DNA from: Dehalococcoidia bacterium
GTDB lineage: Bacteria; Chloroflexota; Dehalococcoidia; UBA2979
DNA: 64,000 nt
Assembly: GCA_965219085.1 (NCBI GenBank)
Contig: OZ244720.1
Coordinates: 64,001 to 128,000 of the forward strand
Direction: 5' to 3'
Position 1 is the first letter of the stretch. Every line of letters starts with the position of its first letter. Below, piece after piece: positions 1-41,400 of this stretch. Both the position numbers and the translations under genes were made by a program. The notes beneath the pieces are model-generated. The model was not told the origin of the DNA. It was given only the letters and a program-made list of their open reading frames with translations, and did no database searches.

Positions 1-499
1 GCTGTTCGAGACACCGCTGATCGGGTGGACGGTGTGGCTGTACGGTGCGTTCCCCGTCCGGCGCCACTCGGGCGACCTCGGCGCGCTGCGGGCCGGCCGC
101 AACCACCTGCGAGCGGGCCGCGCCGTGCTCGTGCATCCCGAGGGCACGCGGTCGCCGGACGGGAGACTCCAGCCGGGCTTGCCGGGCTCGGCCGTGATGG
201 CGTTGCTCGGCGGCGCACCGATCGTGCCGTGCGCGGTCACCGGCACGCTGCCCATCAAGGGCACTCGATCGATCCTGCGCGCGCTGCTCGGCCGCCGTAC
301 GTCGATCCGCATCGTCTTCGGCGAGCCGTTCACGCTCGACGCAGGCAAGCCGACGGCCGATCGGGCGGAGGCGGCGACCGATCTGATCATGCGTCGCATC
401 GCCGAGCTGATGCCGGAGGAGTACCGGGGCGCCTACGGCGCGGGCTCGGAGGGTCAACTCGTCGTCGCCCGCCACCGCGACAGCGCCCGCTCCGAGTAG
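1..499 (+). CDS. plsC: 1-acyl-sn-glycerol-3-phosphate acyltransferase (PlsC family), 5' end outside window
   Basis: Motifs GAFPVRR, HPEGTRS and APIVP typical of lysophospholipid acyltransferases; frame is open from the window edge. Confidence 0.8.
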   Translation, partial: LFETPLIGWTVWLYGAFPVRRHSGDLGALRAGRNHLRAGRAVLVHPEGTRSPDGRLQPGLPGSAVMALLGGAPIVPCAVTGTLPIKGTRSILRALLGRRTSIRIVFGEPFTLDAGKPTADRAEAATDLIMRRIAELMPEEYRGAYGAGSEGQLVVARHRDSARSE

Positions 500-522
500 C
501 CGTTCCTCGCCCGCGGGCGCTA
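491..522 (+). repeat. Direct repeat, copy 1 (plsC stop codon region), left boundary of ATPase/HEPN islet
   Basis: TCCGAGTAGCCGTtcctCGCCCGCGGGCGCTA matches 3457-3488 at 28/32 nt. Confidence 0.8.
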
Positions 523-912
523 TCCGTCTGGCATCGCCGGACGGGACGGCGCGCGTGCCGCGACCGCCTCGACGAAGTCTTCAACCATCTCGATCCAATA
601 TCGCAACTCGTCACGAGAGGGTTCGATCTCGTACGGATGGTGGTGGCAGACACGGCTCAGAGCCGTCCAGGTCTGCCACGCCGTCGCCGCAACTTGCTCG
701 CTGCGAACGTACTCACCCAGACAGAGGAATTGCGCTCGGGCCGGGAGTGACTCAACGCTCGGCGCGCGCTCGTGCCACAGATCGCGCATTGCCATTTCAA
801 GCGCCTGGCGTGCGAGCGCCGCGGCTGCACGAGGCCAAAGCCCTGCGGTGGCCGGCTCGTGCCGCTCGACGAGGGCGCGTGCCTCTGCGACCAGGCGGGC
901 AGAGGAGGTCAC
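520..912 (-). CDS. Small HEPN-like hypothetical protein, coupled to the upstream ATPase
   Basis: 130 aa, predicted helical; ARQALE and LSRVCHHH resemble the HEPN RxxxE and R..H motifs; GTGA overlap with the ATPase stop at 909-912. Confidence 0.65.
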   Translation of the reverse strand: MTSSARLVAEARALVERHEPATAGLWPRAAAALARQALEMAMRDLWHERAPSVESLPARAQFLCLGEYVRSEQVAATAWQTWTALSRVCHHHPYEIEPSRDELRYWIEMVEDFVEAVAARAPSRPAMPDG

Positions 913-3359
913 TTCGAAGACCTGAGCGCCGTGGCCAGGGCTTCGGAATTATCGATGAGCGCGCGAAGCGCGCCGATGCTCACGCCCTCGTGCGAACCGC
1001 GGGTGCATGCGAAGAAGGCGTCACCGGCGCGCCGGCCAAAGCGAGAGTTGATCGCGCTCCCAACTTCGTGAGCCCGCCCGGGCTTGTCGAAGAGGAGCAG
1101 GCCAGCCTTCTCGACGAGTGACTGGGCCTGTTCGAGCGACTCCTCGACTTCGCGGTGGGGGACGCCACGCCCGATCCATCGACGCCGCACGACCTCCATG
1201 CACACCGCCTCAATCGCGTTGCGGCAGAAGACCGGCACAACCCTCCCTGCGACATCCGCCGACAGGCCCGGCGTCTGCACCAAGGCCCTTGCATCATCGA
1301 AGTAGCGAGCCACCGGGTCCGAGACTGGACGTACTTCAACCACTGACGAACCGCGGCGCGCGACTTGTAGTTGCTTCGCGCGGATCCCGAGTCTGCGGAC
1401 CGCCTCGGGCAGCCGGTCGTCGTGGGTGAACACGATGACCTGACGCTCCCGAGCGACGTCATCGAGCACTCGCGCGAGACCGTCGACCTTCGCCGCATCC
1501 ATGGCCTGAACGGGGTCGTCGATCACGACGAAGCGAAACGGACTGGCATTGAAGGTCGCCCGCGGCAGAAACAGGCTCAGAGCGAGCGAATGCAACTCGC
1601 CCTGGCTCATCACACCGAGCGCCGCGCCTTCGGTTCCGTCGACGGTCACATCAACCGCGAGACGACGCCGATTCCCGCTGCCGGCGAGGTCGAAGCGGGT
1701 GATGTCAACACTGCTCCCCTGCCGCAGTTGCGCCCAGATCGCAGACGATTGCTCGGCCAACGGGGCGAACCGCTCGGCTCGCACGGCATCCATGGTGCCT
1801 TGCAGCCACTCCTCGCCAGCGCTCAGCTCCCCGATTTGCTCGCTCCCCCGCTGTGCTTCGCGAGCGGCGGGCGACCATGCGCGCAGGCGTTGAGCCACAG
1901 GACGCCATGCGTCCTCGCGACGTTCAAGCTCGGCTCCGGCTCGTTCGCGCACGCCAGCGGCCGCTTCGCGAACGGGACCGAGCGCGGACTCTATGTGGTC
2001 GGCAAGTGCGCCCGCGTCGACGTCGTCGGGAGGGGCAAGCCACGCGTCCCACACCGTACGGAGCCCCACAGCTTCGATGCCCACCCGGTGGGCTTCGCCG
2101 AGCGCGTTCGGTGCGGGCTGCAAGAAACCTCGCCCCGCGCGCATCGCGGCGTCCACGCCGTCACGCGCGGCCTGCGCCCCGGCCGCCCCGTGCTGGAGCG
2201 ATTCGACCTCTTGCTCTGCCCGCTGGCGCCACGCGGCATCGAGCGTCCCGGCGCCGCAGACGGGACACGGCCCGCCGCCGGCGTGGTCGTGGAACCGAAC
2301 CGCCGCTTCGAGCAAGTCTGCTACCTGCAGCGCACGGCCCGCATCGGTGTTCCGCGTGGCGTCGTATGCCATCTGGGCGTCCCGAAGCCCCTCGCAAATC
2401 ACTGCCGCCGCTGCCTCATCCGGTGCGTCGATTGCGGCCAGTTGCCGCAAGGTCGTCAGCTCATCCGCGGCATCCGAGCCCGTGGCCCCTTCGAGCGCCC
2501 GCTCCACGACGCCGAGCCCCCAACCATCGGACTGCAGCGCCTCCAGACACTGCGTGGCCCGAGCGTCGTCGAGGGCTCCGAGCGCCTCGATGAGCTCGCT
2601 GCGGATTGCGTCCGCGTCTCCGAGGGCTTGCCGGCGGCTCAGCCGCGCCCGTCTGAGCCGCGCGCGGGCGTCGACCAGCGCGTCGAGACCGAGCACTCGC
2701 GAGACGCTGTCGTAGAGCGTCGTCGGCCCGGCTTCCAGCGTCGTTCCGAGTTCGTTGTAGGAGAGGAACGGACGGAAATGGGCTAGAGCGTCCTCCCAAC
2801 CCAGCATCGAGAGATCGCCTCGCGGTTGCCCGATGGTCTGTGCAGTCGCGACGCCGTCGGGCAGTAGGTCATCCGCGTCCCAGTGCCGCTCGATCCGTGT
2901 CTCGCCGGTCGTCCCCTCGATAGCGAGTCCCGCTTCGACGCGCACGGGGTCTCCATGGTGCAGGTTTCGCCAGCCCTCCTTCCAGATGGCCGAGCGATCG
3001 TCCCAGCGCCGGTTGCTACCCGTCAGCAGCATCTCAAGGCCCTCGGCGAAGCTCGACTTGCCGCACCCATTCGGGCCGATTACGAGCGTGAGACCGGGCC
3101 CGGGCTCAATCGGAAGCTCGGCCCGAGCTCCGATGCCACGAAAGCCCTCCACGGAGATGGACGTGAGGTACGCGCCGACAGGCGCCGGGGCGGTAAGGGG
3201 GTCACTGTCCTCGGCGTCTGGAGATGCTTCGCCGTCCAGCGCGGAATCAAGGGCCTCGTCCGACTCCAAGCTGGCCAGAACGAGCAGTCCCGACGCAACG
3301 TCGATTCCCCCATCCCGGTCCAACTTGTTCCCGACGAGTGCAGCCAGCTCGCGATCCAT
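909..3359 (-). CDS. Rad50/SbcC/RloC-like ABC-ATPase with zinc hook and HEPN-like C-terminal domain
   Basis: ISVEGFRG, Walker A GPNGCGKS, coiled coil with central CPVC, signature MSQGE, Walker B/D-loop VVIDDPVQAMD, H-loop FTHD; about 170-aa tail with CRNAIE and TRGSH. Confidence 0.85.
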   Translation of the reverse strand: MDRELAALVGNKLDRDGGIDVASGLLVLASLESDEALDSALDGEASPDAEDSDPLTAPAPVGAYLTSISVEGFRGIGARAELPIEPGPGLTLVIGPNGCGKSSFAEGLEMLLTGSNRRWDDRSAIWKEGWRNLHHGDPVRVEAGLAIEGTTGETRIERHWDADDLLPDGVATAQTIGQPRGDLSMLGWEDALAHFRPFLSYNELGTTLEAGPTTLYDSVSRVLGLDALVDARARLRRARLSRRQALGDADAIRSELIEALGALDDARATQCLEALQSDGWGLGVVERALEGATGSDAADELTTLRQLAAIDAPDEAAAAVICEGLRDAQMAYDATRNTDAGRALQVADLLEAAVRFHDHAGGGPCPVCGAGTLDAAWRQRAEQEVESLQHGAAGAQAARDGVDAAMRAGRGFLQPAPNALGEAHRVGIEAVGLRTVWDAWLAPPDDVDAGALADHIESALGPVREAAAGVRERAGAELERREDAWRPVAQRLRAWSPAAREAQRGSEQIGELSAGEEWLQGTMDAVRAERFAPLAEQSSAIWAQLRQGSSVDITRFDLAGSGNRRRLAVDVTVDGTEGAALGVMSQGELHSLALSLFLPRATFNASPFRFVVIDDPVQAMDAAKVDGLARVLDDVARERQVIVFTHDDRLPEAVRRLGIRAKQLQVARRGSSVVEVRPVSDPVARYFDDARALVQTPGLSADVAGRVVPVFCRNAIEAVCMEVVRRRWIGRGVPHREVEESLEQAQSLVEKAGLLLFDKPGRAHEVGSAINSRFGRRAGDAFFACTRGSHEGVSIGALRALIDNSEALATALRSSK

Positions 3360-3456
3360 ACGGGTCTCCTACAGGAACGGTCTATGCGCGTCTGCGCATG
3401 AATAATTGGAGATCACGAGTGTACTAGCATCGGTCGTTGGGACGATAGTCGCCTCA

Positions 3457-3488
3457 TCCGAGTAGCCGTCGGGCGCCCGCGGGCGCTA
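3457..3488 (+). repeat. Direct repeat, copy 2, right boundary of ATPase/HEPN islet
   Basis: TCCGAGTAGCCGTcgggCGCCCGCGGGCGCTA, 28/32 nt identical to 491-522. Confidence 0.8.
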
Positions 3489-3524
3489 CGCTTGCGGGGG
3501 CGGGGCCGACGCGAGGACTGCGTT

Positions 3525-5378
<1,854 letters not shown>

Positions 5379-5489
5379 GCGCCCGGCCCGCGCCGAGCCC
5401 CGCGCTCTGTGGATTCGACGCGTCACGAGCCGGTCCGTCGCTCCCTCGGGCCCGGCGGCGGCACGTATCGTGGCTGACGGCGAGGGGCG

Positions 5490-7091
5490 TTGCCGGTGAC
5501 GGGACCCGATCTGACGCTCGCGAACTGGCTGCTCGCGGCCGTGCCCGTGGTCGTCCTCATGGTCGCGATCTTCTTCCTGAACTGGAGCGCGCCGCGGGCC
5601 GGCGCCACGGCGTGGGTGCTGGCGCTCGCGCTCGCATTCCTCGTCTTCGGCGCGGCGAGCGACCACGTCGCGATCGCGAGCGCGAAGGGGCTGAGCCTGT
5701 CCGTCTTCGTGCTCAGCATCGTCTGGACGTCGGTCTACATGTTCAACCTCGTCGACAAGCTCGACGGCATCGACGCGATCGGGCGGGCGATGGCGAGGCT
5801 GTCGAGCGACCGGCTCGCGCAGGCGCTGCTCATTGGCTGGGGGTTCGCGAGCTTCGTGCAGGGCGTGACCGGCTTCGGCGTGCCGATCGCCGTCGCCGCG
5901 CCGATCCTGATCATGCTCGGCTTCTCGCCGGCGCGCGCCGCGGCGATGGCGCTGGTGGGGCACGGCTGGGCCGTCACGTTCGGCTCGATGGGCTCCTCGT
6001 ACTACACGATCCAGCTCGTCACGGGCATCGAGGGCCCCGTGATCGCGCCGCACATGGCGCTGCTCTTCGCCCCGGTGATCGTCGTCAGCGGCGCGCTGGT
6101 GGCGCACATCCACGGCGGGCTCGCCGCCGTGCGACGCAGCTTGCCGCTCGTGCTCGTCGCGGGCGCGGTCATGGCGGCCGGCATGTACGCGCTCGCCGAG
6201 GCGAACGCGCCCCAGATCGCGTCGAGCGTGCCCGCGGTGCTCGGCATGGCCGCGATGGCGCTCGTCGCCCGCACGCCGCTGCTGCGGCCCGAACCCGCAG
6301 CTCCCGCTCCACCGGAGCCCGAGGGCGACGACGACGCCCGGCCGATGCCGTTCTGGCTCGCGTTCATGCCCTACACGCTGCTGATCTCATTGAGCGTGAT
6401 CGCGCAGATCGGGCCGATCAAGGAGGCCTCCTCGGGGCTGCGCTGGGCGCTGGACTACCCGGGCTTCGAGACCGCCGAGGGCTTCGCGGTGGCGGCCGTG
6501 AACGACTACGCACCGATCCGGCTGCTCAACCACCCGGCGCCGCTCATCGTGTTCGCGCTGCTCATCAGCGTGGGCCTCTACATCGCGACCGCGCGGTGGC
6601 GGCGCGGCGTCGCGTGGGAGGCGCTGCGGCTCACCTACTCGCAGTGCCTCGCCACGAGCATCGGCGTCGCGACGATGGCGATGATGGCGGTGATCATGGC
6701 CGACTCCGGCATGACCGTGCTGCTGGCGCGCGGGCTGGCCGACGCTTCCGGGCCGGTCTTCCCGCTCGTCTCGCCGTTCATCGGGATGCTCGGGGCGTTC
6801 ATGAGCGGCAGCAACACCAACTCGAACGTGATGTTCGGCCTGCTGCAACTCGAGACGGCGCGAGCGCTGGACATCGGCCCCGTGACGATCTCGAGCATCC
6901 AGTCGGTGGGCGCCTCGGTCGGCAGCGCGATGGCGCCCGCGAAGGTGCTCGTCGGGGCGGCGGTGGTGGGGCTGTCGGGCAGCGAGCGCGCTATCTTCCG
7001 CATCGTCACCCCGTACATCGTGCTGCTCGTGCTGCTCGCGGGGATCGAGGCCTTCATCGTGATCGAGCTGCTCACGGGGCTGTCGAGGTGA
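5490..7091 (+). CDS. lctP: L-lactate permease family transporter
   Basis: Multi-TM protein; FASFVQGVTGFGVPIAV and GAFMSGSNTNSNVMFG motifs. Exact start uncertain. Confidence 0.85.
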   Translation: MPVTGPDLTLANWLLAAVPVVVLMVAIFFLNWSAPRAGATAWVLALALAFLVFGAASDHVAIASAKGLSLSVFVLSIVWTSVYMFNLVDKLDGIDAIGRAMARLSSDRLAQALLIGWGFASFVQGVTGFGVPIAVAAPILIMLGFSPARAAAMALVGHGWAVTFGSMGSSYYTIQLVTGIEGPVIAPHMALLFAPVIVVSGALVAHIHGGLAAVRRSLPLVLVAGAVMAAGMYALAEANAPQIASSVPAVLGMAAMALVARTPLLRPEPAAPAPPEPEGDDDARPMPFWLAFMPYTLLISLSVIAQIGPIKEASSGLRWALDYPGFETAEGFAVAAVNDYAPIRLLNHPAPLIVFALLISVGLYIATARWRRGVAWEALRLTYSQCLATSIGVATMAMMAVIMADSGMTVLLARGLADASGPVFPLVSPFIGMLGAFMSGSNTNSNVMFGLLQLETARALDIGPVTISSIQSVGASVGSAMAPAKVLVGAAVVGLSGSERAIFRIVTPYIVLLVLLAGIEAFIVIELLTGLSR

Positions 7092-7264
7092 TCCTGCTGC
7101 GCGACGGTACGCGCCGCCGGCTGCAACACATCGCCCTCGCCGGCATGGCGGCAAGCTTCCCGCTGCTCTACGTCGGTGCGGTGACGCTGGAGAGCGCGCC
7201 CGTGACGGTGGCGGGCCTGGCCGTGGCCGGCGTCACGGCCATCCTCGCCTGGCTGGCGTTCTGA
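7088..7264 (+). CDS. Small two-helix membrane protein (58 aa)
   Basis: GTGA overlap with the lctP stop; VILLRDGTRRRLQHIALAGMAASFPLLYVGAV...AILAWLAF with host-like codon use. Confidence 0.55.
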   Translation: MILLRDGTRRRLQHIALAGMAASFPLLYVGAVTLESAPVTVAGLAVAGVTAILAWLAF

Positions 7265-7277
7265 CGCCGCGAGCGCC

Positions 7278-10396: not shown

Positions 10397-13120
<2,724 letters not shown>

Positions 13121-31513: not shown

Positions 31514-31638
31514 CTGACCGCCTCGAGAGCGGGGACGTTGGATGTACGCATGGCGTGAATCTACACCGCCGAGGAGTCCTCGACCCGCGCGGCTGGTACG
31601 ATGCGCGCCGTCGCGATCACATGCATCGAGGAGCGCTC

Positions 31639-32070: not shown

Positions 32071-32525
32071 GCGGCGTGTCACCCGAACCGCGCTGGCCCG
32101 CCGAGCCGCTCGAAGCGGTCGCTGCGTACTGGGAGCAGCAGCCCCTGTACGCGATGTTCGGCATCGAGCTCGAGGCGCTCGAGGAGGGCTACGCGCGCAT
32201 CGGCGTCGAGCGCGACCGCGTGCCGCTGCGCGGCGTGCGCGACTCGCTCAACGGTGGTGTCGTGGCCTCGCTCGGCGAGGCCGCCGCGCAGCTATGCCTG
32301 ACGACCCAGCTCAGGCCCGACGAGGTGCTGGGCGTGACGCACGAGGTGAGCGTCTCCTACCTGACCTCGGCGCGCGGCGAGCACACCGTGGCCGAGGCGC
32401 GCCTGCTGCGCCGCGGCGGGCGCATCGCCGTCGCCGACGTCGAGCTGCGCGACACGACAGACGGCGCGATCAACGCCAAGATCCGCGTCTCGATGGGCAT
32501 CGACCGCGTCGAGGCGAGCACGTAG
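32064..32525 (+). CDS. PaaI-family thioesterase
   Basis: LNGGVVASLGE, VSVSYL, AEARLLRRGGRIAVADV. Confidence 0.8.
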   Translation: MVSGVSPEPRWPAEPLEAVAAYWEQQPLYAMFGIELEALEEGYARIGVERDRVPLRGVRDSLNGGVVASLGEAAAQLCLTTQLRPDEVLGVTHEVSVSYLTSARGEHTVAEARLLRRGGRIAVADVELRDTTDGAINAKIRVSMGIDRVEAST

Positions 32526-32606
32526 ACCCCTCGCCCCGTCCGACACCGCGCGGGCGGTAGCGGCGGCCATGCGGTACGCTTTCCCCATAACGTGGAAGGT
32601 GGGCGC

Positions 32607-33428
32607 ATGCCCCGCTACCTGATCGTCGCCGACCAGACCGTCACCAGCCCGGACCTCGTCGCGCGCGCCTCGCAACTCGCGCGCGCCGAGCCCGACTCCA
32701 CGTTCTCGCTGCTCCTGCCCGCCCTCCTGCCCTCGCACATCCGCGGCGGGCCGTTCGACGCGGTCACGCGCGGCCGCGCCGAGCAGGCGAAGCGGCTGCT
32801 CGCCGCCGCCGGCATCGAGGTGGGCCGCACGGCCGTCGGCGACGCCGCGCCGCTGCTCGCGATCGAGGACGAGCTCACCGAGCATCCTGACGCGTACGAC
32901 ACGATCATCCTCTGCACCCTGCCGGAGGGCATCTCGCGCTGGCTGCGCATGAACGTCCACCGCGACGCGGCCGAGCGCTTCGGCCTGCCCCTCGTCCACG
33001 TCGAGGCACGCATCGCGACGCGGCTCGAGTTCCGCCGCGCGACGCTGCACGACCACGAACGCATCCAGGCGCTGTGGGACGAGTCGCGCCTCGACACCGT
33101 CGACGAGCACGAGTGGGACACGCTCATCACGAGCCCGGGCGCGATCGTGCTGGTGGCCGAGGAAGAGGGCGCGCTCGTCGGCGCGATCGTCGGCACCTTC
33201 GACGGGTGGCGGGCGTACGTCTACCACGTGGCCGTCGTGCCCGGCCGGCGTCGGCGTGGCGTCGCCAAGGCGCTGTTCGAGGAGGCGCAGGCGCACCTCG
33301 CGTACGAGGGCAACCGCATCGTCTACGTGATGGTGAACGAGGAGAACGAGGGCGGCATGGCCCTGCTGCACTCGCTCGGCTACCGCCAGCAGGGCGACAT
33401 CGTGATGGTCACCGAGATCGGCGAGTAG
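32607..33428 (+). CDS. Fusion of USP-like domain and GNAT acetyltransferase
   Basis: YLIVADQT..VGDAAPLLAIED..IILCTLP..SRWL..LPLVHV, then GTFDGWRAYVYHVAV.P..RRRGVA. Confidence 0.75.
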   Translation: MPRYLIVADQTVTSPDLVARASQLARAEPDSTFSLLLPALLPSHIRGGPFDAVTRGRAEQAKRLLAAAGIEVGRTAVGDAAPLLAIEDELTEHPDAYDTIILCTLPEGISRWLRMNVHRDAAERFGLPLVHVEARIATRLEFRRATLHDHERIQALWDESRLDTVDEHEWDTLITSPGAIVLVAEEEGALVGAIVGTFDGWRAYVYHVAVVPGRRRRGVAKALFEEAQAHLAYEGNRIVYVMVNEENEGGMALLHSLGYRQQGDIVMVTEIGE

Positions 33429-33479
33429 CCAGCGTCGAGGCCCGTCGCACGCCGCCCTGCGAACCACCTGCGACGCAGC

Positions 33480-33839
33480 CTACTGGCGCGCGAGCGTCTG
33501 CCCGAGCCACACCGCCGCGAGCGCCCCCGTCACGCTCAGCACGACGTTGAGCGCGACGTACGTCCACTCGCCGTCCTGCGCGAGCCGCAGCGTCTCCAGG
33601 CTGAACGTCGAGAACGTGGTGTACGAGCCGAGCAGGCCGACGAGCAGCGCGGTGCGCAGCTCGGCGGGCATCCCCGTGCGCTCGACGAGGAACGTCGCAA
33701 GGAAGCCGATGGCGAAGGAGCCGGTGACGTTCACGGTGAGCGTGGCGGCCGGGAACGTCTCGGGCTGCACGGCGCGGCCGACGCCGTAGCGCAGGAGCGC
33801 CCCGGCCGCACCAGCCACCGCGATCAGCGCGAGTTGCAC
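33480..33839 (-). CDS. crcB: Fluoride channel Fluc/CrcB
   Basis: GAAGALLRY, FP.ATLTVNV.GSF, GLLGSYTTFSTFSLE. Confidence 0.96.
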   Translation of the reverse strand: MQLALIAVAGAAGALLRYGVGRAVQPETFPAATLTVNVTGSFAIGFLATFLVERTGMPAELRTALLVGLLGSYTTFSTFSLETLRLAQDGEWTYVALNVVLSVTGALAAVWLGQTLARQ

Positions 33840-33881
33840 ATCGCCACGCTACGAGGCGCGTGGCGTTTGGGCCAGCGGGCG
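33807..33881 (+). repeat. Direct repeat, copy 1: crcB promoter region and first 11 codons
   Basis: 69/75 nt identical to 35290-35364. Confidence 0.92.
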
Positions 33882-33968
33882 TGGGGCATGGGTCGGGTGG
33901 GGGTTGCAAACCCATTCGGAGATCCGTAGAGTCGCCGCTTTCCTCCGCGCGTGTGGGGGAGGTGAGCA

Positions 33969-35288
33969 ATGCGCGTTCCTCGTTCGGCCCCGCTGCTGTT
34001 GTTCGTCGTGCTGCTGGTGGCCGCATCGGCCTTTGCCGGTTGCGGCCGCTTCGAGGACCAGTCACTGACCGTGACCGCGTTTATCGGCAGCGAGGGTGCT
34101 GGCGAAGTGGTGCTGGAGTGGGCGGGCGGTCCCCGGGACGTGCAGCTCTGGCAGTATCAGTACCGCCGCCCATCCCCCCTCCGTGTCGTCCCGTGGGGCG
34201 ACGAATGGCGAGACATCCCGCTTGAAAGCGTGCGCCTCGCTCGGCACCGAGTCGAAGGATTGGAGCCCGGGCGGGGGTACCACTTCCGCATGCGCCCGGT
34301 GTCATGGTCCGGACTCGGAGCGCCATCCGAACTCGCCTCATCAGTGTCGTCGGAGGTTGGCATCGACGGCATCGTGATTGCCGGGCATCGCCTTGCGCTC
34401 GAACGTGGCGGCAGGTTCCGTCTACCAACCTCGGAGTACTGGACCTTCAAGGTACCGCCCGAGGGTATTTTCGGGGCCGAACTCCATCACTTCGATTTCC
34501 CGGGCGACGCGATCACAGAGCTCAAGTCCGACGCGGTTCTGTTCCTTGAGCCGAACACGGGCAGAGAAACGGGCAGGTGGATCCCCGAAGGCAGCCGCAG
34601 CGACGTGGGTCCGCTGTTCGACCAGATCGCCGACTCCGTGCGGTACCGGCCGGAACACCCCGTTGGCCCGCTCTACGCACTGGTAGGTGCAGACGCGGGC
34701 GTGATCGTGCTGGAGTGGGAGCATCACGGATCGGGCGTGAGTCGCTGGCAGTACCGACAGCGAGAACGGCACCGGATCGACCGGGGCGAGTGGGGCGAGT
34801 GGGGCGAGTGGAGTGCGTGGGCAGAAATCCCCGGCAGCGACGCCGGCGCGAGGGTGCACCGGTTGAGTGGGCTCCTCGGCGGCGTGTCGTACGGCTTCGA
34901 GCTGCGACCGCAGCCGTTCGGGGCTCTGGTCTTCGGCGCTGACGCGTCCCTGCCCGCTACGGATCCCGGCAGCTTCGTGTGGACGAGCAGGCCCGAAAGC
35001 GGTCGAACCTTCAAGCTCTCTGAAGACTTCGTCTTTGACGTGCCGCGTGGCTTGCACCTCCGACTACTGTCCTTCACCTACCATCCCGCCGTGGTGCCCG
35101 GAGTGGACGTGCGCACCACCGTACGACGACGCGCAACCGCGATGCTCGACCTAGAGACCGGGTCCACTTTGGTCGTCTACGCGCCGACGGGTGAGTACCT
35201 CGGTCGCCACGTCACGTCCAGGGGTGAGCGGCTAGGGGTCGACGCGCTGTTCGACCAGATCGTCGCGTCCATCCGGCCCGCTCCGTAG
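33969..35288 (+). CDS. Putative lipoprotein with two tandem [FN3-like + unknown domain] units
   Basis: Signal peptide with lipobox FAGC; VVLEW..WQYQYR..W.DIP..GL.PG..Y.F twice; second domain ends LFDQIADSVR / LFDQIVASIR. Confidence 0.75.
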   Translation: MRVPRSAPLLLFVVLLVAASAFAGCGRFEDQSLTVTAFIGSEGAGEVVLEWAGGPRDVQLWQYQYRRPSPLRVVPWGDEWRDIPLESVRLARHRVEGLEPGRGYHFRMRPVSWSGLGAPSELASSVSSEVGIDGIVIAGHRLALERGGRFRLPTSEYWTFKVPPEGIFGAELHHFDFPGDAITELKSDAVLFLEPNTGRETGRWIPEGSRSDVGPLFDQIADSVRYRPEHPVGPLYALVGADAGVIVLEWEHHGSGVSRWQYRQRERHRIDRGEWGEWGEWSAWAEIPGSDAGARVHRLSGLLGGVSYGFELRPQPFGALVFGADASLPATDPGSFVWTSRPESGRTFKLSEDFVFDVPRGLHLRLLSFTYHPAVVPGVDVRTTVRRRATAMLDLETGSTLVVYAPTGEYLGRHVTSRGERLGVDALFDQIVASIRPAP

Positions 35289-35289
35289 G

Positions 35290-35364
35290 CGCTCCGGCCA
35301 CCGCGATCAGCGCGAGTTGCACGTCGCCACGCTAGGAGGCACGTGGCGTTTGGGCCCGCGGGCG
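35290..35364 (+). repeat. Direct repeat, copy 2: orphan crcB 5' fragment
   Basis: Minus strand reads TAGCGT-N6-GTG CAA CTC GCG CTG ATC GCG GTG GCC GGA GCG (MQLALIAVAGA), then diverges; begins 1 nt after the lipoprotein stop. Confidence 0.92.
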
Positions 35365-35472
35365 GCCGACGCGGGTCGACGGCCGGACGATTCGATAGAC
35401 GCACTTCTGCATGTAGCAGGATTCGCGCGCACGCTCCCACAAGGCCCAGCAGCACCAGAGGAACGAGGCAAC

Positions 35473-36045
35473 ATGCCCACTGACAGCACCAGCGATCCGA
35501 CAGACGTCAACATCGCGTTGCTGCGCGGGATCAACGTCGGTGGCAAGAACAGGCTGCCGATGAAGGATCTCGCAGCAATGTTCGTGGACGCGGGCTGCGA
35601 CGACGTTCGGACCTACATCCAGAGCGGGAACGTGCTCTTTCGGACGGAGCCGACGCGAGGCGAGGACATCCCATCCCTCATCAGTGCGTCGATCCTGAGT
35701 CACTTCGGCTACCAGGTTCCCGTGGTTGCTCGCGGAGCCCGGGAGCTCGAAGCGATTGTGCAGGCAAATCCCTTCGTTGAAGGCGGGGCCGAAACCGACA
35801 AGCTGCACGTCGTGTTCCTGGCGGATCTACCCGACGCCGAGCACGTCGGGGCACTCGACCCGGATCGCTCGCCACCCGACGAGTTCGCCGTGCGAGGTCG
35901 TGAAATCTATCTCCACTGTCCGAATGGGCTCGCGCGCAGCAAGCTCACGAACAGCTACTTCGACTCCAGACTTTCGACCATCAGCACGATGCGGAACTGG
36001 AAGACCGTGCGGAAGCTGCTCGAGCTGGCCGCCGATGTCCACTGA
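35473..36045 (+). CDS. DUF1697 family protein
   Basis: IALLRGINVGGKN, VRTYIQSGNV, TMRNWKTV. Confidence 0.9.
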   Translation: MPTDSTSDPTDVNIALLRGINVGGKNRLPMKDLAAMFVDAGCDDVRTYIQSGNVLFRTEPTRGEDIPSLISASILSHFGYQVPVVARGARELEAIVQANPFVEGGAETDKLHVVFLADLPDAEHVGALDPDRSPPDEFAVRGREIYLHCPNGLARSKLTNSYFDSRLSTISTMRNWKTVRKLLELAADVH

Positions 36046-36148
36046 GCGACGGCGCGTCTGCCGCACGACCGCCGGCCCGACCCACGCCGCACCGCCGACG
36101 CGGCTATCATGCGCGCGACCGCGAAGCGCGAGCACCGGGAGGGACGCC

Positions 36149-37264
36149 ATGACCACGGGACGCGTCGTCGTCTTCAAGGACCACGGACTGCCGTTCGAGA
36201 TCGAGGAGTACCCGGTCCCCGACCCGGAGCCGGGCGGCATCATCCTCCGCATCACCCAGGCCGGCGTCTGCGGCTCCGACCTCCACACCTGGCGCGGTGA
36301 CCAGCGGCGCGTCCAGATCCCACCCTCGGGCCGGAACATGGGCCACGAGGGCGCCGGGGTCGTCTGGGCGCTCGGCGAGGGCCGCACCACCGACTCGCTC
36401 GGCCGCCCCATCCAGGAGGGCGACCGCCTGATGTACGCCGCGATCATGCCCTGCAACAGCTGCTACCACTGCGGGCGCGGCGAGAAGAACTGGTGCTCGA
36501 ACCGCCAGACGGGCATCGGCGCGCGCATCGCCGGCGAGTTCCCGTACTTCACCGGCACCTACGCCGACTACTTCTGGATCCCCGCCGGCCACCCCGTCTA
36601 CAAGGTCCCCGACGAGCTCCCCGACTCGGTGCTCGGCTGGGTCAACTGCGCGATGGGCACCGTCACCGAGGGCCTGCTCCGCGCGGGCTGCACCGCCGGC
36701 GACTACGTCGTGATCCAGGGCGCGGGTGGCCTCGGGCTGAACGCGACCGCGCTGGCCAGGGACATGGGCGCGAACAAGGTGATCGTGCTCGACCGCCTCG
36801 CCAACCGCCTCGAGCTCGCCGAGGAGTTCGGCGCCGACCACACCATCAACATCGAGGAGTTCAACACGCACGAGGCGCGCCGCGACCACATCCTCGACAT
36901 CACCGAGGGGCGCGGCGCGAACATCGTGATGGAACTCGTCGGCCGCGCCGAGTTGCTCGTCGAGGGCCTCGACTACCTCACCAACGGCGGCACGTTCATG
37001 GAGATCGGCGACATCGTGCCGGGACGGACCGTCGAGCTCGACCCGTCGACGATCCTGCGCGGCAAACGCATCATCGGCTCCTCGATGTACCGGCCGGAGC
37101 TGCTGCCGGTGATGATGGAGACGCTGGTCAAGAAGATGGACACGGTGCCGTACGACAAGATCGTGTCGGACTTCTACCCGCTCGACCAGGTCAACGAGGC
37201 GTTCGCCAGGGCCGAGTGGAACGAGACCCAGACGCAGATCTCGCGCGCGATGCTCGTGCCGTAG
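36149..37264 (+). CDS. Zinc-binding (MDR) alcohol dehydrogenase
   Basis: GVCGSDLH, GHEG.G, CNSCYHC..C, GAGGLG; GGAGGG upstream. Confidence 0.92.
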   Translation: MTTGRVVVFKDHGLPFEIEEYPVPDPEPGGIILRITQAGVCGSDLHTWRGDQRRVQIPPSGRNMGHEGAGVVWALGEGRTTDSLGRPIQEGDRLMYAAIMPCNSCYHCGRGEKNWCSNRQTGIGARIAGEFPYFTGTYADYFWIPAGHPVYKVPDELPDSVLGWVNCAMGTVTEGLLRAGCTAGDYVVIQGAGGLGLNATALARDMGANKVIVLDRLANRLELAEEFGADHTINIEEFNTHEARRDHILDITEGRGANIVMELVGRAELLVEGLDYLTNGGTFMEIGDIVPGRTVELDPSTILRGKRIIGSSMYRPELLPVMMETLVKKMDTVPYDKIVSDFYPLDQVNEAFARAEWNETQTQISRAMLVP

Positions 37265-37290
37265 CGGCCGGCGTCGACCGACCGAGTGCC

Positions 37291-37329
37291 TCAACGTGCG
37301 CCGGCGGTGACGCCGGCGCGCTGAGTCAC
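37291..37329 (-). repeat. Orphan copy of the pcp 3' end with stop codon (direct repeat of 38031-38064)
   Basis: Encodes VTQRAGVTAGAR-stop versus VTQRAGGTAGAH in pcp; 37296-37329 matches 38031-38064 at 28/34 nt. Confidence 0.75.
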
Positions 37330-37587
37330 GTGGCCCTGTCGGAGGCAGGCGCGCGGATGCTGATCCCTCGGTGGAACCATGCGTGGTCGGGCAACGTAGT
37401 TCATGCGAGTGGATGTTGGTGCTGGCGAGATGCCAGTAGGGCGCGAGGGCGCCTTCCCGCATGCCGGGGTCCCGGTACCACATGCGTAGCGCGCCGACCA
37501 CGGACCGCGCACGACGGTGGAACAGGGGACAGATCGCGATGCGAGTCCACCTGAAGCCGCCGGGCCGGCTTCGGCCAGGCGGCGGTC

Positions 37588-38013
37588 ATGCTCGTCCTCG
37601 CGGTCGTGCTCATCGTCGCACTCGGACGTGAGGACCACTGCGAGCCACGGGCCAGCCTGGACGACGCAGATCAATTTGTAGACATGACCATTGGCTGGAA
37701 GGTGGACCTCCCCATCACTGGCCTCGCGACGCTCATCTGGTCGAAGTCATCCCCGCCGTACGACCGCGGGGAAGATGCCGTGATTCTCGACATTCCCGAG
37801 GGGGTTGTGATGACGGACGTGAGGGTGGAACGGGGGCATGTCCAACCCGGGCAGCCAGAGTATGTGATCGGCATTTTTCTGGAGGACGGTTCGAAGCTCG
37901 TCATTGACCCCGCTGGTCACAGGTGGGACCGAGACTCAAGGAGCCGCGCTGGCGCCATCGCCCTGGACCGTATCCAGGCCTCGATTCGGACGCTATGCCC
38001 GGGCCAGCCGTGA
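37588..38013 (+). CDS. Exported hypothetical protein, single copy of the unknown domain seen in 33969-35288
   Basis: Hydrophobic N-terminus; LDIPEG..LEDGSKLVIDP.G..R..LDRIQASIR parallels FDVPRG..LETGSTLVV...G..GR..FDQIVASIR. Start uncertain. Confidence 0.6.
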   Translation: MLVLAVVLIVALGREDHCEPRASLDDADQFVDMTIGWKVDLPITGLATLIWSKSSPPYDRGEDAVILDIPEGVVMTDVRVERGHVQPGQPEYVIGIFLEDGSKLVIDPAGHRWDRDSRSRAGAIALDRIQASIRTLCPGQP

Positions 38014-38667
38014 CCCTGAGCTGCTGGTATGCGCGCCGGCGGTGCCGCCCGCACGCTGCGTTACCAGGTCACGCACGAACTCGATCGCCGCGCGCACGCC
38101 GAGCGCCTGCGCGTCGAGCGCCATCGAGGGTGTGCCGGCGCGCTTGTCGATGGTCTGCTCGGGCAGGTACGGGAGGTGGATGAAGCCGCCGATCGCGCCC
38201 GCGCCCGTCGCGTCGAGGCGGTCCATCATCGCGTAGAGGGTCTCATTGCAGATGTAGGTGCCCGCCGTCTCCGACACCTGCGACGGGGCGCCCGCCTCGC
38301 GCATCGCCGCGGCTAGTTCGCCGACGGGCAGACGCGCGAAGTAGCCCGCGGGCCCACACGCCACGAGCGTCTGCTCCGGCATCACGCGCCCCTCGGCGTC
38401 GCGGTCGATGAGCACGTTGACGCCGGTGCGTTCGACCGAGAGGTGCGAGCGTCCGCCGGCCTCGCCGAGGCCGATCCACGCGTCGAACCCGCCCGCCTCG
38501 AACGCCGGGATGAGCCGGTCGAACGAGATGCGGCCGCGCACGGGCAGCCGCAGCAACTCGAGGTCGACGCCGTCCGGCGGCGCGGCGCCGATGGCGCTCG
38601 CGACCTCCCACGAGGGGTTCACGCGCTCTCCCCCGAACGGTTCGAAGCCCGACAGCAGCAGCCGCAT
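37993..38667 (-). CDS. pcp: Pyroglutamyl-peptidase I
   Basis: LLSGFEPFGGERVNPSW, GLGEAGGR..SVER, AGTYICN, GFIHLP; GGAGGAGG upstream. Confidence 0.93.
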   Translation of the reverse strand: MRLLLSGFEPFGGERVNPSWEVASAIGAAPPDGVDLELLRLPVRGRISFDRLIPAFEAGGFDAWIGLGEAGGRSHLSVERTGVNVLIDRDAEGRVMPEQTLVACGPAGYFARLPVGELAAAMREAGAPSQVSETAGTYICNETLYAMMDRLDATGAGAIGGFIHLPYLPEQTIDKRAGTPSMALDAQALGVRAAIEFVRDLVTQRAGGTAGAHTSSSGSRLARA

Positions 38668-38733
38668 GACGCCCTCCTCCGGTTGGCCCGTCGCGTGCAG
38701 TCTAGCGACCCGCCGATGCCGTAGGCTGCGCGC

Positions 38734-39600
38734 ATGGAAGTCTTCCTCCTCGACGGGACGTACGAGCTGTTCCGCCACTACTTCGGCGCGCCCCCGCACC
38801 GCGACGCCGAGGGCAACGACGCGGGCGCGGTGGTCGGGGTGCTGGGCTCGGTGGTGAGGCTGTTCGAGGAGGGCGTGACGCACCTCGGCGTGGCGACGGA
38901 CCACGTCGTCGAGTCGTTCCGCAACGACCTGTGGCCGGGCTACAAGACCAGCGCGGGCATGGAGGAGGGCATCCTCGCGCAGTTCGTTCCCCTTGAGGAC
39001 GCGCTCACGGTGATGGGCGTCCGCGTGTGGCCGATGGTCGACCTCGAGGCCGACGACGCGCTCGCCTCCGCTGCCCTCCAGGCCGCCGAGGACCCCGACG
39101 TCACACGCGTGGTGATTGCGACGCCCGACAAGGACCTCGGGCAGTGCGTCGGCGGGAAGGTCGTGCAGTTCGACCGCCAGCGCCGCGAGGTGCGCGACGC
39201 CGCAGCCGTCGAGGCGCGCTTCGGCGTGCCGCCCGCCTCGATCCCCGACTACCTGGCGCTGACGGGCGACAGCGCCGACGGCTTCCCCGGCCTCAAGGGC
39301 TGGGGCGCGAAGTCGAGCGCGACGGTGCTCGCCCGCTACGGCCACATCGAGGCGATCCCGCTCGACCCGGCGGACTGGGACATCACGGTGCGCGGCGCGT
39401 CTCGGCTCGCGACTGCCCTCGTGGACGGCTACGACGCGGCGATGCTGTTCCGCGACCTCGCGACGCTGCGCACCTCGGAGCCCGTCTTCGAGTCGGTCGA
39501 GGAGCTGCGGTGGGCAGGCCCCACTGCCGAGTTCGAGGAGTTGGCGAACCACCTGCGCTCGCCAGGGCTGCTCACGCGCGCGCTGGCAGCTGCACCGTGA
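38734..39600 (+). CDS. Stand-alone 5'-3' exonuclease / flap endonuclease
   Basis: LLDGTYELFR, EADD, TPDKD, LTGDSADGFPG..GWG.K H3TH motif. Confidence 0.9.
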   Translation: MEVFLLDGTYELFRHYFGAPPHRDAEGNDAGAVVGVLGSVVRLFEEGVTHLGVATDHVVESFRNDLWPGYKTSAGMEEGILAQFVPLEDALTVMGVRVWPMVDLEADDALASAALQAAEDPDVTRVVIATPDKDLGQCVGGKVVQFDRQRREVRDAAAVEARFGVPPASIPDYLALTGDSADGFPGLKGWGAKSSATVLARYGHIEAIPLDPADWDITVRGASRLATALVDGYDAAMLFRDLATLRTSEPVFESVEELRWAGPTAEFEELANHLRSPGLLTRALAAAP

Positions 39601-39655
39601 ACCGCCTCGGCGGTAGCATCCCGCGCACCGGCGCACGATGCATGGAGGCCCACTC

Positions 39656-40072
39656 GTGACGCTCGACGTGCAGCCGCCCGGCATCCCGCTGCCCCGGCCC
39701 CGGGAACTCACGCAGCCGCACTGGGAGGGCTGCCGCCGCGGCGAGCTGCTCGTGCAGCGCTGCGAGGACTGCGGCCACCACGTCTTCATCCCCCAACACG
39801 CATGCACGGCCTGCCTCAGCGAGCGCCTCGAGTGGGTGCCGAGCAGCGGCACCGGCGTCGTCTACAGCTACACGACGGTCCACCGCCCGCAGCAGCCGGC
39901 GTTCGAGACGCCCTACGTGTGCGCCATCGTCGAACTCGACGAGGGCTGGCACATGCTCAGCAACCTCGTCGGCCTCGAGGCGGAGGGCGTGCGCATCGGG
40001 ATGCGTGTCGAGGTCGCCTTCCATGCGGTCTCGGACGAGGTGACGCTGCCGTACTTCCGGCCTGCCGAGTAG
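39656..40072 (+). CDS. DUF35-type zinc ribbon/OB-fold protein
   Basis: LLVQRCEDCG..CTAC..SGTGVVYSYT..AIVELDEG..IGMRVEV.F; GGAGG upstream. Confidence 0.9.
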   Translation: MTLDVQPPGIPLPRPRELTQPHWEGCRRGELLVQRCEDCGHHVFIPQHACTACLSERLEWVPSSGTGVVYSYTTVHRPQQPAFETPYVCAIVELDEGWHMLSNLVGLEAEGVRIGMRVEVAFHAVSDEVTLPYFRPAE

Positions 40073-40145
40073 CGGCGGGCGCCTCGAGCCCGGGGGGCCG
40101 CGTCTTGCCCGCGTCCCGCGTGTCGGCCACACTTGGTTGAGGCTA

Positions 40146-40221
40146 TCCCCGATAGCTCAATCGGTAGAGCGAGCGGCTGTTAACCGCTAGGTTCGTGGTT
40201 CGAGTCCACGTCGGGGAGCCA
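40146..40221 (+). tRNA. tRNA-Asn (GTT)
   Basis: TCCCCGATAGCTCAATCGGTAGAGCGAGCGGCTGTTAACCGCTAGGTTCGTGGTTCGAGTCCACGTCGGGGAGCCA. Confidence 0.98.
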
Positions 40222-40405
40222 ACACTTATGTCGCGCATCTCCCCTTCGCCCCGCGCCCGAGGTGACTACGCCCGATCCGCGTCGCAATCTACAGACCGAC
40301 AGGACAGCCGAGGCGGCGGTGGAGGCCGTCGATCGACCCCGTACATGTGGGGAGCGTCTGGCGCGGCGCCAGGCTGGCGCTCGAATTACTTCGAAGGGAA
40401 CCGCG

Positions 40406-41206
40406 ATGACGACAGCAGAACAGTTCTTCACGATCGCGTGGCCCGGCGGAATGATGGGGCTCCGATGCATCGGGGTTGAGCCTGTCGGGGACAATCAGGT
40501 TGCCATAGTTCAAGAGGCCATGGAGCAGTTCGCTACCGAGTCCCACCTGATGTTCATCTGGTACATCGGCGTGCTGAACAGCCGTGAGGCCATTCAGCGT
40601 CAACTCTCTGACAGCATCGCACCCGAGAGTCCAGTCGCCGTCGTCAGCGCACGGGACGATGGCACAACCCGATCGATACGCACTCGAGTTCGCGGCGCCG
40701 AGGCTACTGACGCCATCGCGAGAGGAGCGGAGTTCGAGCGGTTGTACGCCAGATCGCACATCATCTCCGTGTTCACACTCTGGGAGGAGCTCATTCGTCC
40801 AAAGATCGCCGACGCGCTCGGCGTTGACCGAAACGCGGTGACTTCTGATCTCATGGGCGATTGGAGACATCTGAGAAACTGGCTCGTGCATCCGAAAGAC
40901 AGCACAGAAGAGGACTACTTCAACAACGCTCAGGCGCTGTCGGAGGCGCTGGGCTCACAGCGAGGGAGACCTGAGATCACGGCTGGCGGCGTTCTCGTCC
41001 TGATGGAACGGCTGAACGCACTTGCGGTGGTGGTGAACCCCCACAACCAAGAGCCACTCACACAGTTCGTTCCTCCAGACCCAGAGACGTGGGCGAAGAT
41101 ACAGCGAAGCCTTGGTCCTAACGACAGGGTCCTCCCAATGTGGCCCGGGGGCACCACATCCGAACAACGATCGGAGCCCTCGGGGGATCTCCCGACGACA
41201 TACTAA
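40406..41206 (+). CDS. HEPN-like hypothetical protein in tRNA-Asn islet
   Basis: VFTLWE and LRNWLVH (Rx4H) motifs; more A/T-ending codons than the backbone; GAAGGGAA upstream of ATG 40406. Confidence 0.65.
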   Translation: MTTAEQFFTIAWPGGMMGLRCIGVEPVGDNQVAIVQEAMEQFATESHLMFIWYIGVLNSREAIQRQLSDSIAPESPVAVVSARDDGTTRSIRTRVRGAEATDAIARGAEFERLYARSHIISVFTLWEELIRPKIADALGVDRNAVTSDLMGDWRHLRNWLVHPKDSTEEDYFNNAQALSEALGSQRGRPEITAGGVLVLMERLNALAVVVNPHNQEPLTQFVPPDPETWAKIQRSLGPNDRVLPMWPGGTTSEQRSEPSGDLPTTY

Positions 41207-41366
41207 GCGAGGAACTAACACCAGATTCCTCTGGAGCCGCCGGGCCAACTCTCGCAACACTGACACCGCCCTTCGCGGCCTCAGTCGGGTCCCGCAAGAC
41301 GCCCTACGGCACACGGGACGCGCGCGCCGACAGTAGACCGACTCAGAGCGCCCACAACTAGCTCGA

Positions 41367-41400
41367 AGGTTCGTCGTACGGTCTCCCCTGGGGAGCCAAC
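41367..41400 (+). repeat. Degenerate copy of the tRNA-Asn 3' half (attR-like)
   Basis: AGGTTCGTcGTaCG...GGGGAGCCAAC versus AGGTTCGTGGTTCG...GGGGAGCCAAC at 40189-40223; last 11 nt identical. Confidence 0.7.

Follow-up and report, generated by a model that had tools for sequence, protein, structure and literature searches.

Recombinase-free islets bracketed by duplicated ends of host genes in a Dehalococcoidia genome

Introduction

The window analysed here, a 64,000-nucleotide stretch of the genome of a Dehalococcoidia bacterium (Chloroflexota; assembly GCA_965219085.1, contig OZ244720.1, positions 64,001 to 128,000), contains in its first 41 kb four small islets of cargo DNA, each enclosed by two copies of the end of a neighbouring gene: the 3' end of a plsC-type acyltransferase gene (slot 1, repeat R1), the 5' end of the fluoride channel gene crcB (slot 2, R2), the 3' end of the pyroglutamyl peptidase gene pcp (slot 3, R3) and the 3' half of a tRNA-Asn gene (slot 4, R4). 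What kind of event leaves such an arrangement behind? Small defence and toxin-antitoxin (TA) genes shift fast between strains and their vehicle is often unknown. Direct repeats of gene ends are routinely taken as the scar of a lost integrase; here there are roughly thirty in one genome, none with an integrase. A first-pass annotation of the sequence had offered two readings of the four islets, namely heavily eroded integrase islands or a general, homology-guided route of gene capture.

Our analysis confirms that the four islets are real insertions accompanied by a duplication derived from the target, the tRNA pair being weak. Such insertions occur genome-wide, have no recombinase in cis, and have a repeat edge that falls at the terminal codon of the host gene.

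Results

Empty and differently filled slots in related species

The window is part of a single 3.31-Mb contig (G000; other G-numbers denote comparison genomes) with an estimated completeness of 92.7%. Its GC content is 70%, and the public runs that contain this stretch are sponge metagenomes or coded organisms. In Logan contigs from two studies, islets 2, 3 and 4 are bridged independently in assembled form. The search for congeners covered all 18 other species of the genus, of which six (G003, G007, G008, G014, G016 and G018) are syntenic, with flanks 84-92% identical.

The first-pass annotation had named as diagnostic either empty alleles with a single repeat copy or different cargo in the same slot; the former were found for slots 1-3 in congeners, and the latter in other species. 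At slot 1 of G018, the matches to the left and right flanks overlap by 12 nt on one repeat copy, while in G003, G008 and a metagenome contig (L060) the flanks lie 12-39 nt apart with no cargo between them. L060 was the one close relative among 25 loci recovered by a metagenome scan with the plsC protein, and has 33 nt between its flanks. Alternative fillings of this slot consist of 1254, 1308, 1840 and 2966 nt of unrelated DNA (G014, G016, G007 and G006). At slot 2 of G018 the flank matches overlap by 85 nt, equal to one copy, and a single repeat copy is also present in G016, G008, G003 and G014. G007 has the same bracket as G000, a 41-nt repeat at 88% identity whose right copy begins directly after the cargo stop, enclosing an allele of the cargo protein c2 with 32% amino acid (aa) identity and conserved ends. 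At slot 3, the flank matches overlap by 38 nt on one copy in G007 and G014, and G016 has a different insert of 655 nt with an open reading frame (ORF) of 182 aa. R1 and R3 are insertion footprints, because congeners show one repeat copy and no cargo. None of the counter-findings that had been named in advance (relatives with the same cargo and no repeats, a lack of empty alleles, or full integrase-bearing islands at each site) turned up in the genomes examined.

Strength of the four repeats

Direct repeats were scanned across the whole genome with 10-mer seeds, a scoring of +1/-2 and separations of 300-5000 nt, and the chance level was taken from these separations after a shift of 400 kb or 800 kb. 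Shifted pairs with a score of at least 17 numbered 125 (400 kb) or 106 (800 kb) genome-wide, about 1.3-1.6 expected per 41 kb, and those with a score of at least 20 numbered 17 or 8, about 0.1-0.2 per 41 kb. R2, first described as 69/75 matches between 33807-33881 and 35290-35364, extends to 77/89 (Table 1) and with a score of 57 is clearly real. R1 (28/32) and R3 (28/34) lie exactly where they had been placed; the score of R1, 20, is marginal by itself, and that of R3, 17, is insignificant alone. The four repeats are mutually unrelated, as had been proposed, with pairwise scores of 5-8 that are within chance. The distance from cargo stop codon to repeat, given beforehand as 0-18 nt for the three protein-gene slots, is 0, 1 and 17 nt (c1a, 520-522; c2, 35286-35288; c3, 38011-38013).

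R4 stands in part: an ungapped alignment yields only 20/34 matches, but a gapped one consists of a 14-nt block with 2 mismatches and an exact 11-nt block. Its gapped score of 14 was reached by 6 of 400 random 5-kb chunks of the genome. The sequence downstream of tRNA-Asn differs in all six close relatives, G003 and G008 sharing one state, and no second tRNA half was found within 1.3-2.5 kb downstream of the gene in these six. A homologue of the giant gene that bounds slot 4 starts 48 nt past the tRNA in G018, in a rearranged context and as part of a multi-copy family. Slot 4 looks like an ordinary scar at a tRNA end, statistically weak.

One could argue that R3 and R4 are chance matches in a genome of 70% GC and that only R1 and R2 are meaningful; the expectation for the score of R3, the random chunks that equal R4 and the lack of a second tRNA half in the relatives all point that way. 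However, the flank overlap at slot 3 in G007 and G014 is exactly the repeat (38 nt), the left copy of R3 keeps the pcp frame and stop, and the R4 match bounds exactly the segment of 62% GC. A chance origin of both is, in our judgement, hardly credible.

Anatomy of the slots

In slot 1 the distal (right) repeat copy resembles the relatives and enters the native glmS leader, and the copy next to plsC has a unique middle. This spot has been used more than once, since two or three partial copies of one 30-nt stretch are present in G003, G008, L060 and G007. The larger cargo gene, c1b, has PADLOC matches to mad3 (3.6e-20) and LmuB (2.6e-15). The GC content of the cargo in slots 1-4 is 0.68, 0.67, 0.65 and 0.62, respectively, compared with 0.70 for the window.

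In slot 3 the native-looking copy is again the distal one. Read on the minus strand, R3 left still encodes ...QRAGVTAGAR-stop and differs from relatives by synonymous changes only, plus TAG to TGA. The right copy, joined to the body of pcp, lacks the native stop, and the gene extends about 13 codons into cargo DNA; the peptidase domain is kept (Pfam positions 1-201 of 204). The earlier statement that the host gene stays intact holds in general, but not for pcp, which has lost its own stop and gained a new tail of about 13 residues. The protein atlas gave no usable match for c3.

In slot 2 the first 11 crcB codons are kept in both R2 copies, with two differences, both synonymous. A homologue of c2 (36-38% aa identity) lies one gene further on in G014, between the DUF1697 and dehydrogenase genes, and its final 54 nt match the end of c2 at 89% identity. 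This position bears on the possibility, raised mainly for slot 2, that a local rearrangement moved a resident, fast-evolving lipoprotein gene from downstream to upstream of DUF1697, by tandem duplication of the crcB-upstream/DUF1697/cargo region followed by deletions. The bracketed arrangement is old because G007 shares it, which also suits a rearrangement, as does islet 1075912 of the genome-wide set described below, an ordinary gene that is common to seven close species and has a homologue elsewhere in G009, G005, G010 and G002. A rearrangement nevertheless requires three precise steps, leaves unexplained the foreign cargo of low GC (0.54-0.62) and about 25 other islets, and does not sit well with the empty sites of G018 and G016, which are without the gene entirely. 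We consider it quite improbable.

Several further observations concern slots 2 and 3. The c2 proteins (window 33969-35288; G007, L016 1849-3198; G014, L018 2447-3526) are 32-38% identical between species whose flanks are 85-94% identical, and the leader, the signal peptide and the last codons are conserved; from the alignments, this hypervariability suggests diversifying selection or allele swapping. The fn3 match is weak in c2 and reaches 1.1e-8 in the G007 allele. Upstream of crcB, at 33840-33895 and 35323-35378, there is a hairpin with an 8-bp stem (CGCCACGC...GCGTGGCG, minus strand), which all relatives as well as the two repeat copies have conserved. It is not a known fluoride riboswitch, since Rfam at gathering threshold matched only two tRNAs in the window and no riboswitch at this hairpin; at five other islet loci Rfam matched nothing. 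In three congeners, palindromic, G-rich short repeats (CCCTCTCCC...GGGAGAGGG) occupy the slots crcB|DUF1697 and dehydrogenase|pcp, where G000 has cargo genes (G018, L013 3526-3801; G003, L019 1911-2060; G008, L017 1684-1978 and 3734-4094), and it is these that fill slot 3 in G018, G003 and G008. Judged by their sequence, they look like a family of miniature inverted-repeat transposable elements or of the repetitive extragenic palindromic type. In the slot-3 spacer of G008 (contig C98, L017 about 3880-3920) a run of N is followed by homopolymers of C and T, probably an assembly or scaffolding artefact. One run, at a depth of 2.8, contains a low-depth joint from 33718 to 35370 that is uninterpretable.

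In slot 4, the nearest clusters to the c4 protein in the protein atlas are unnamed. The giant surface protein gene at 41537-48199 belongs to a set of genes at many sites of the genome whose internal repeats encode an RGIWSDG-type motif; the paralogues have 70-80% nucleotide identity and are dispersed in all congeners.

Gene-end brackets across the genome

Brackets of this kind proved to be genome-wide, beyond the first 41 kb in which they had been noticed. The scan gave 1962 short-range direct-repeat hits with a score of at least 20, mostly in the repeat arrays of the giant proteins, of which the RGIWSDG-type genes supply the largest part. Isolated pairs at 300-5000 nt numbered 88, compared with 17 (400-kb shift) and 8 (800-kb shift). 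Thirty-six of the 88 lie inside one ORF; the remaining 52 include 30 in which a copy lies at a called gene end, compared with 46 of 354 shifted pairs. Twenty-nine of the 52 were picked by eye as gene-end brackets and, together with R3 and R4, make up 31 candidates. Three of these enclose ordinary insertion sequence (IS) transposases and were set aside.

The remaining islets enclose 0.3-3.3 kb, and their contents include PIN+Phd, HicB-like, DUF5615, Gp49+HTH, NYN, DUF3800, Exo_endo_phos, an AAA_16 NTPase, an aspartyl protease, unnamed ORFs and one ordinary DAP_DH_C gene. Repeat lengths range from 22 to 173 nt, and some pairs are identical or nearly so (39/39, 31/31, 76/77). Empty sites were again found: at islet 1073814 the flanks overlap by 81 nt in five of six close relatives (G007, G014, G016, G008 and G003), at islet 1075912 by 38-56 nt in G015, G013, G012 and G004, and at islet 1162545 by 37 nt in G018. 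The host gene of islet 874673 had no match in five close relatives. Counted per 400 kb, gene-end pairs numbered 5 in G014, 3 in G030, which belongs to another family of the class, and 1, 8 and 8 in slices of G000, with 0-2 in the shifted-separation controls of such slices. The density in the congener G014 equals that in G000, and that in G030 is about half as high.

Two loci outside the window deserve separate mention. At genome positions 1073891-1073894 and 1075417-1075420, a single CTAG forms the end of both of two convergent host genes, so that their stops overlap on opposite strands with zero intergenic space, and a 1.45-kb insert of 54% GC lies between them by way of an 81-nt duplication (L032, near 1891-1894 and 3417-3420). 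At 1107308-1109238 a direct repeat of 941 nt, with a spacing of 989 nt and a score of 716, comprises two small genes; it is a plain tandem duplication, of another kind than the short brackets.

Repeat edges and differences between the copies

In 12 of the 15 brackets built on a 3' gene end, the repeat ends 0-6 nt after the host stop codon, where 1.9 were expected; none of 200,000 simulations reached 12, and the offset was determined by eye for two of the 15. Over 22 pairs, the differences between left and right copies are distributed over codon positions 1, 2 and 3 as 25:22:64, with 59 synonymous and 39 non-synonymous codon differences. In islet 1073814, four of five differences fall within the first 24 of 81 nt, where the distal copy matches G007, a clustering that indicates a mosaic and not random decay.

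These features can be set against an origin by capture at a staggered break, in which foreign DNA would be ligated by Ku/LigD, the long ends filled in, and the copies would diverge afterwards. Ku is present in the genome, as is ComEC, and such an origin would agree with the several (near-)identical pairs, with the variable repeat length, with the lack of a motif and with a 1-nt deletion that the two R2 copies share and that is absent from all six relatives. A random stagger, however, would not place the outer repeat edge at the stop codon so often. The differences, moreover, cluster. In slots 1 and 3 and in 1073814 it is the distal copy, which has no function, that looks more like the relatives, contrary to what decay of a pseudo-copy predicts; one and the same 30-nt spot of slot 1 would also have been struck repeatedly. 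We rate this origin as highly improbable.

Recombinases and cargo ends

The cargo ORFs were annotated with Pfam, PADLOC, NCBIfam and PHROGs, and the claim that the islets hold no integrase or transposase is borne out: none was recognised by any of the four among the five cargo ORFs. The 22 ORFs from alternative slot fillings in relatives were equally free of recombinase and transposase domains, and slots 1-4 of G003, G006, G007, G008, G014, G016 and G018 contained no recombinase ORF. The recombinases elsewhere in the genome, which the first-pass annotation had singled out as worth listing, are eight serine recombinases and two tyrosine recombinases. For both of the latter the best match is to XerC/XerD models, and the curated cut-off is passed by one and missed by the other. 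The genome yielded no phage-type tyrosine integrase and no member of the RecT or Transposase_31 (Rpn) families. The 31 repeats have no mutual similarity beyond chance, and 28 pairs of cargo ends share no k-mers and have no terminal inverted repeats above shuffled pairing.

Known cassette and transposon systems were considered at this point. Integron cassettes were rejected, as the cargo ends share no motif and integron-integrase models score far below their cut-offs on both Xer-like proteins; a transposon or IS was rejected for the four islets, in which there is no transposase, and terminal inverted repeats are lacking in the 28 islets. Insertion of the Xer/dif type is likewise rejected because there is no shared motif.

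A TA cassette of G000 recurs (79% nucleotide identity) at a different place in G015, where the repeats around it (55 and 38 nt) come from the gene end of that locus. The brackets are nested there (L049 852-2804). Two neighbouring stretches of one gene end, of 55 and 38 nt, are each repeated, at 1869 and at 2767, and a HigB/HigA-like cassette lies between the second repeat pair. It looks like two successive insertions at one address.

An explanation by site-specific elements without an enzyme of their own has to be weighed against these results. The islets would then be decayed attachment-site (att) elements or minimal cassettes mobilised in trans, for example by the large serine recombinases that are common in the class, with an att copy that mimics the gene end and restores the target. 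The architecture is the classical one, a repeat that equals the target gene end and stops at the stop codon (12/15), with differences that are mostly synonymous, as for an evolved mimic. The reuse of the 30-nt spot of slot 1 resembles accretion at att sites, the genome has its eight serine recombinases, and the tRNA-Asn of slot 4 is a standard type of site. There is also precedent. In PMC3146451 a serine integrase is held responsible for the Dehalococcoides ssrA islands, whose flanks repeat 20 bp of the ssrA end, and the cis-mobilizable elements (CIMEs) described in PMC5704250 have lost their integration and transfer genes and kept attL and attR. On the other hand, the roughly 28 addresses are without shared sequence and the cargo ends have no conserved motif, whereas the ssrA islands as described keep a 15-bp motif beside the repeat (PMC3146451). 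No integrase is present in 5 + 22 + 31 cargo ORFs, save for the three ordinary IS transposases, and the genome lacks tyrosine integrases of the phage type. Repeat length varies from 22 to 173 nt, and the host gene end that brackets one TA cassette family in G000 is not the one that brackets it in G015. Members of one family of site-specific elements would be expected to have a motif, an enzyme or an address in common, and the islets show none of the three. Descent from large islands by decay is itself unlikely because recent islets, those with repeats 97-100% identical, are already only 0.4-2.4 kb long. Elements of this kind strike us as an unlikely source of the islets, though the foremost of the alternatives.

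Table 1. Repeats, cargo genes and host genes of the four slots, in positions of the window (GC3, GC content at third codon positions).
Feature	Position	Strand	Remarks
plsC-type acyltransferase gene, 3' part; host of slot 1	2..499	+	Pfam Acyltransferase 5.8e-13; GC3 0.91
R1 left: final two plsC codons, TAG stop, plus 23 nt	491..522	.	28/32 to 3457-3488
c1a cargo ORF, 130 aa, no family	520..912	-	stop codon is the final 3 nt of R1 left
c1b cargo ORF, 816 aa SMC/ABC-type ATPase, defence-like	909..3359	-	Pfam SMC_N, AAA_23, AAA_21
R1 right, runs on into native glmS upstream region	3457..3488	.	lone copy of relatives has the same downstream sequence
glmS, right host gene of slot 1; likely ATG near 3524	3492..5378	+	NCBIfam glmS 1.8e-212
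crcB fluoride channel gene, host of slot 2	33480..33839	-	Pfam CRCB 7.7e-29
R2 left: crcB codons 1-11 and 56 nt upstream	33807..33895	.	77/89 to 35290-35378
c2 cargo ORF, 439 aa predicted lipoprotein, fn3-like, interspecies hypervariable	33969..35288	+	N-terminal hydrophobic stretch ending AFAGC
R2 right (pseudo 5' end of crcB), 1 nt past c2 stop	35290..35378	.	77/89
DUF1697 gene, right host gene of slot 2	35317..36045	+	Pfam DUF1697 3.6e-43
Zinc alcohol dehydrogenase gene, left host of slot 3	35726..37264	+	Pfam ADH_N, ADH_zinc_N; start probably 36100-36200
R3 left: displaced native pcp 3' end	37296..37329	.	own minus-strand stop 37291-37293
c3 cargo ORF, 141 aa, no family	37588..38013	+	69% nucleotide homologue elsewhere in G010
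R3 right, joined to pcp body	38031..38064	.	28/34
pcp pyroglutamyl peptidase gene, new C-terminal tail from cargo DNA	37993..38724	-	Pfam Peptidase_C15 7e-49
tRNA-Asn(GTT)	40146..40221	+	ARAGORN; Rfam tRNA 69.3 bits
R4 left: 3' half of tRNA-Asn	40189..40223	.	
c4 cargo ORF, 314 aa, no family	40262..41206	+	islet GC 0.62 vs window 0.70
R4 right: degenerate tRNA 3' half, two 1-nt gaps	41367..41400	.	
Giant repeat-rich surface protein gene, bounds slot 4	41537..48199	-	

Discussion

A proposed route through host recombination

Of the two readings with which we began, a general capture route fits the data better, as far as can be inferred, and eroded integrase islands fit less well. The form of that route that we favour, at a rough probability of 0.45 and hence a little short of an even chance, is that recombination and repair by the host inserted cargo that arrived already attached to a related version of the gene end at the target. 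The islets would be made by the general recombination and repair of the cell, with no enzyme borne by the cargo. In the incoming DNA, from a related strain or species, the cargo would be physically linked to a copy of the host gene end, and this end would pair with its chromosomal counterpart. We infer the donor, the kind of crossover and the enzymes, and two forms of the exchange may be envisaged. The first is a single crossover with a circularised fragment, that is, a Campbell-type insertion-duplication. The second is a homologous exchange on one side and an illegitimate joint on the other, either by homology-facilitated illegitimate recombination (HFIR) or by break repair that copies the donor and is closed by end joining. 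In either form the cargo would end up between two diverged versions of the gene end, one of which keeps the host gene whole while the other is a displaced stump that keeps the signals of the neighbour. Only duplications of about 20-170 nt are seen; longer ones would presumably recombine and delete the cargo. Once finished, the bracket may serve as an address at which later cargo enters or replaces the earlier, giving single-gene variable slots.

Host recombination would account for several features of the junctions. Homology between gene copies leads to a repeat that stops where the coding sequence stops, which a random staggered cut does not predict, and exchange between homologous gene ends leads to copies that differ like orthologues and to a duplication around the insert. 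The first form has a clear laboratory precedent. In Escherichia coli conjugation, 56 of 60 recombinants had a duplication of the homologous segment, and the 14 that were sequenced had 109-950 bp duplicated, through a single crossover with a circular molecule (PMC3240628). Among the recombinants which that paper describes, a substrate with one homology mostly gave single-crossover duplications and not clean illegitimate joins. For displaced gene ends at toxin loci, illegitimate recombination with one anchor has been proposed (PMC5361080).

A number of points weigh against host recombination of this kind. No donor, circle, excision junction or empty allele from the same population was seen, and assembled contigs cannot show circles, excision or rare alleles. 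For the model to work, the cargo must already abut the stop of the same gene in the donor, and the model does not account for the origin of that first junction. Homology of 30-40 nt is near the lower limit for exchange of the RecA type. The polarity of native and foreign copies is inconsistent, as judged by comparing the copies with relatives: the proximal copy is the more native-looking one in slot 2, in islet 1590094 the proximal copy matches relatives at four positions and the distal at two, with one tie (four of five relatives aligned), and in 2315983 the polarity is mixed, with one of five relatives usably aligned. The deletion shared by the R2 copies fits a duplication within the lineage, or gene conversion. 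The third-position share of 58% is only about 2 standard deviations above the rough 48% that we reasoned for duplication followed by decay of one copy. Cargo of the same families occurs in five copies at other loci, and just one of these, that in G015, is bracketed; no bracket was found at the c1 homologues of G006 and G017, the c3 homologue of G010 or the TA cassette of G018. Finally, the 31 candidates were chosen by eye, and the gene caller behind the counts is a crude GC3 filter.

Gene ends as possible addresses

If host recombination on short gene-end homology does make these brackets, it offers a general and testable mechanism for single-gene slots in streamlined genomes, and the brackets become a simple sequence signature by which such events can be counted in any genome. 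A broader and more tentative idea, which we hold to be possible but doubtful, is that gene ends, that is the first or last 20-170 nt of a gene, serve as portable addresses to which host recombination alone delivers the DNA joined to them, the bracket being reusable. If true, this would be a major, enzyme-independent route for the turnover of defence, toxin-antitoxin and surface genes in the compact genomes of the class and perhaps more widely, and it would account for many 'integrase-less islands' that are currently dismissed as decayed elements.

Comparison with known systems

The islets are like Campbell-type insertion-duplications in that the insert lies between direct repeats of a homologous segment, no site-specific enzyme is involved and the target gene can survive. 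They differ in length, the laboratory duplications reported in PMC3240628 being 109-950 bp as opposed to 22-173 nt here, and in being known here from sequence alone; the islets would further require a natural source of circles, their transfer and a reason for the junction at the stop codon. The orphan modules at rhs, cdi and type VI secretion system effector-immunity loci, attributed to HFIR or 'C-terminal displacement' (PMC5361080), share with them one homologous anchor, the arrival of a new gene end and the pushing of the old end downstream as a stump, without an integrase. Those loci, as that account presents them, are polymorphic toxin genes with a constant core, whereas the islets are anchored on the ends of ordinary housekeeping genes and on a tRNA, leave very small stumps and carry cargo that has no relation to the anchor gene.

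CIMEs, as portrayed in PMC5704250, are alike in their retained att-like repeats, the absence of integration and transfer genes and accretion at the same site. They derive from a related element whose integrase matches theirs and which also moves them (PMC5704250), and neither an element nor an integrase of this sort was found at these sites in the genomes examined; the addresses here are, moreover, many and unrelated. The Dehalococcoides ssrA islands, with the serine integrase DsiB, are alike in their short direct repeat of a gene 3' end and in their tandem arrangement (PMC3146451). By the description in that paper they use one site, with a conserved 15-bp motif and a six-gene integration module, none of which the islets here possess. 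Compared with integrase-borne islands in general, the gene-end repeats are matched here (weakly for tRNA-Asn) but the internal integrase gene is not (0/5 and 0/22 ORFs).

Minimal mobile elements of Neisseria and integrase-free defence hotspots hold varied cargo between conserved neighbours and exchange it by homologous recombination in the flanks; a duplicated flanking gene end is not known from slots of either type. A keyword search of the literature, exclusive of supplements, found no description of a genome-wide set of recombinase-free islets bracketed by gene ends. The event is of a known kind, and what is notable about the islets is their number, their small size and their codon-aligned edges.

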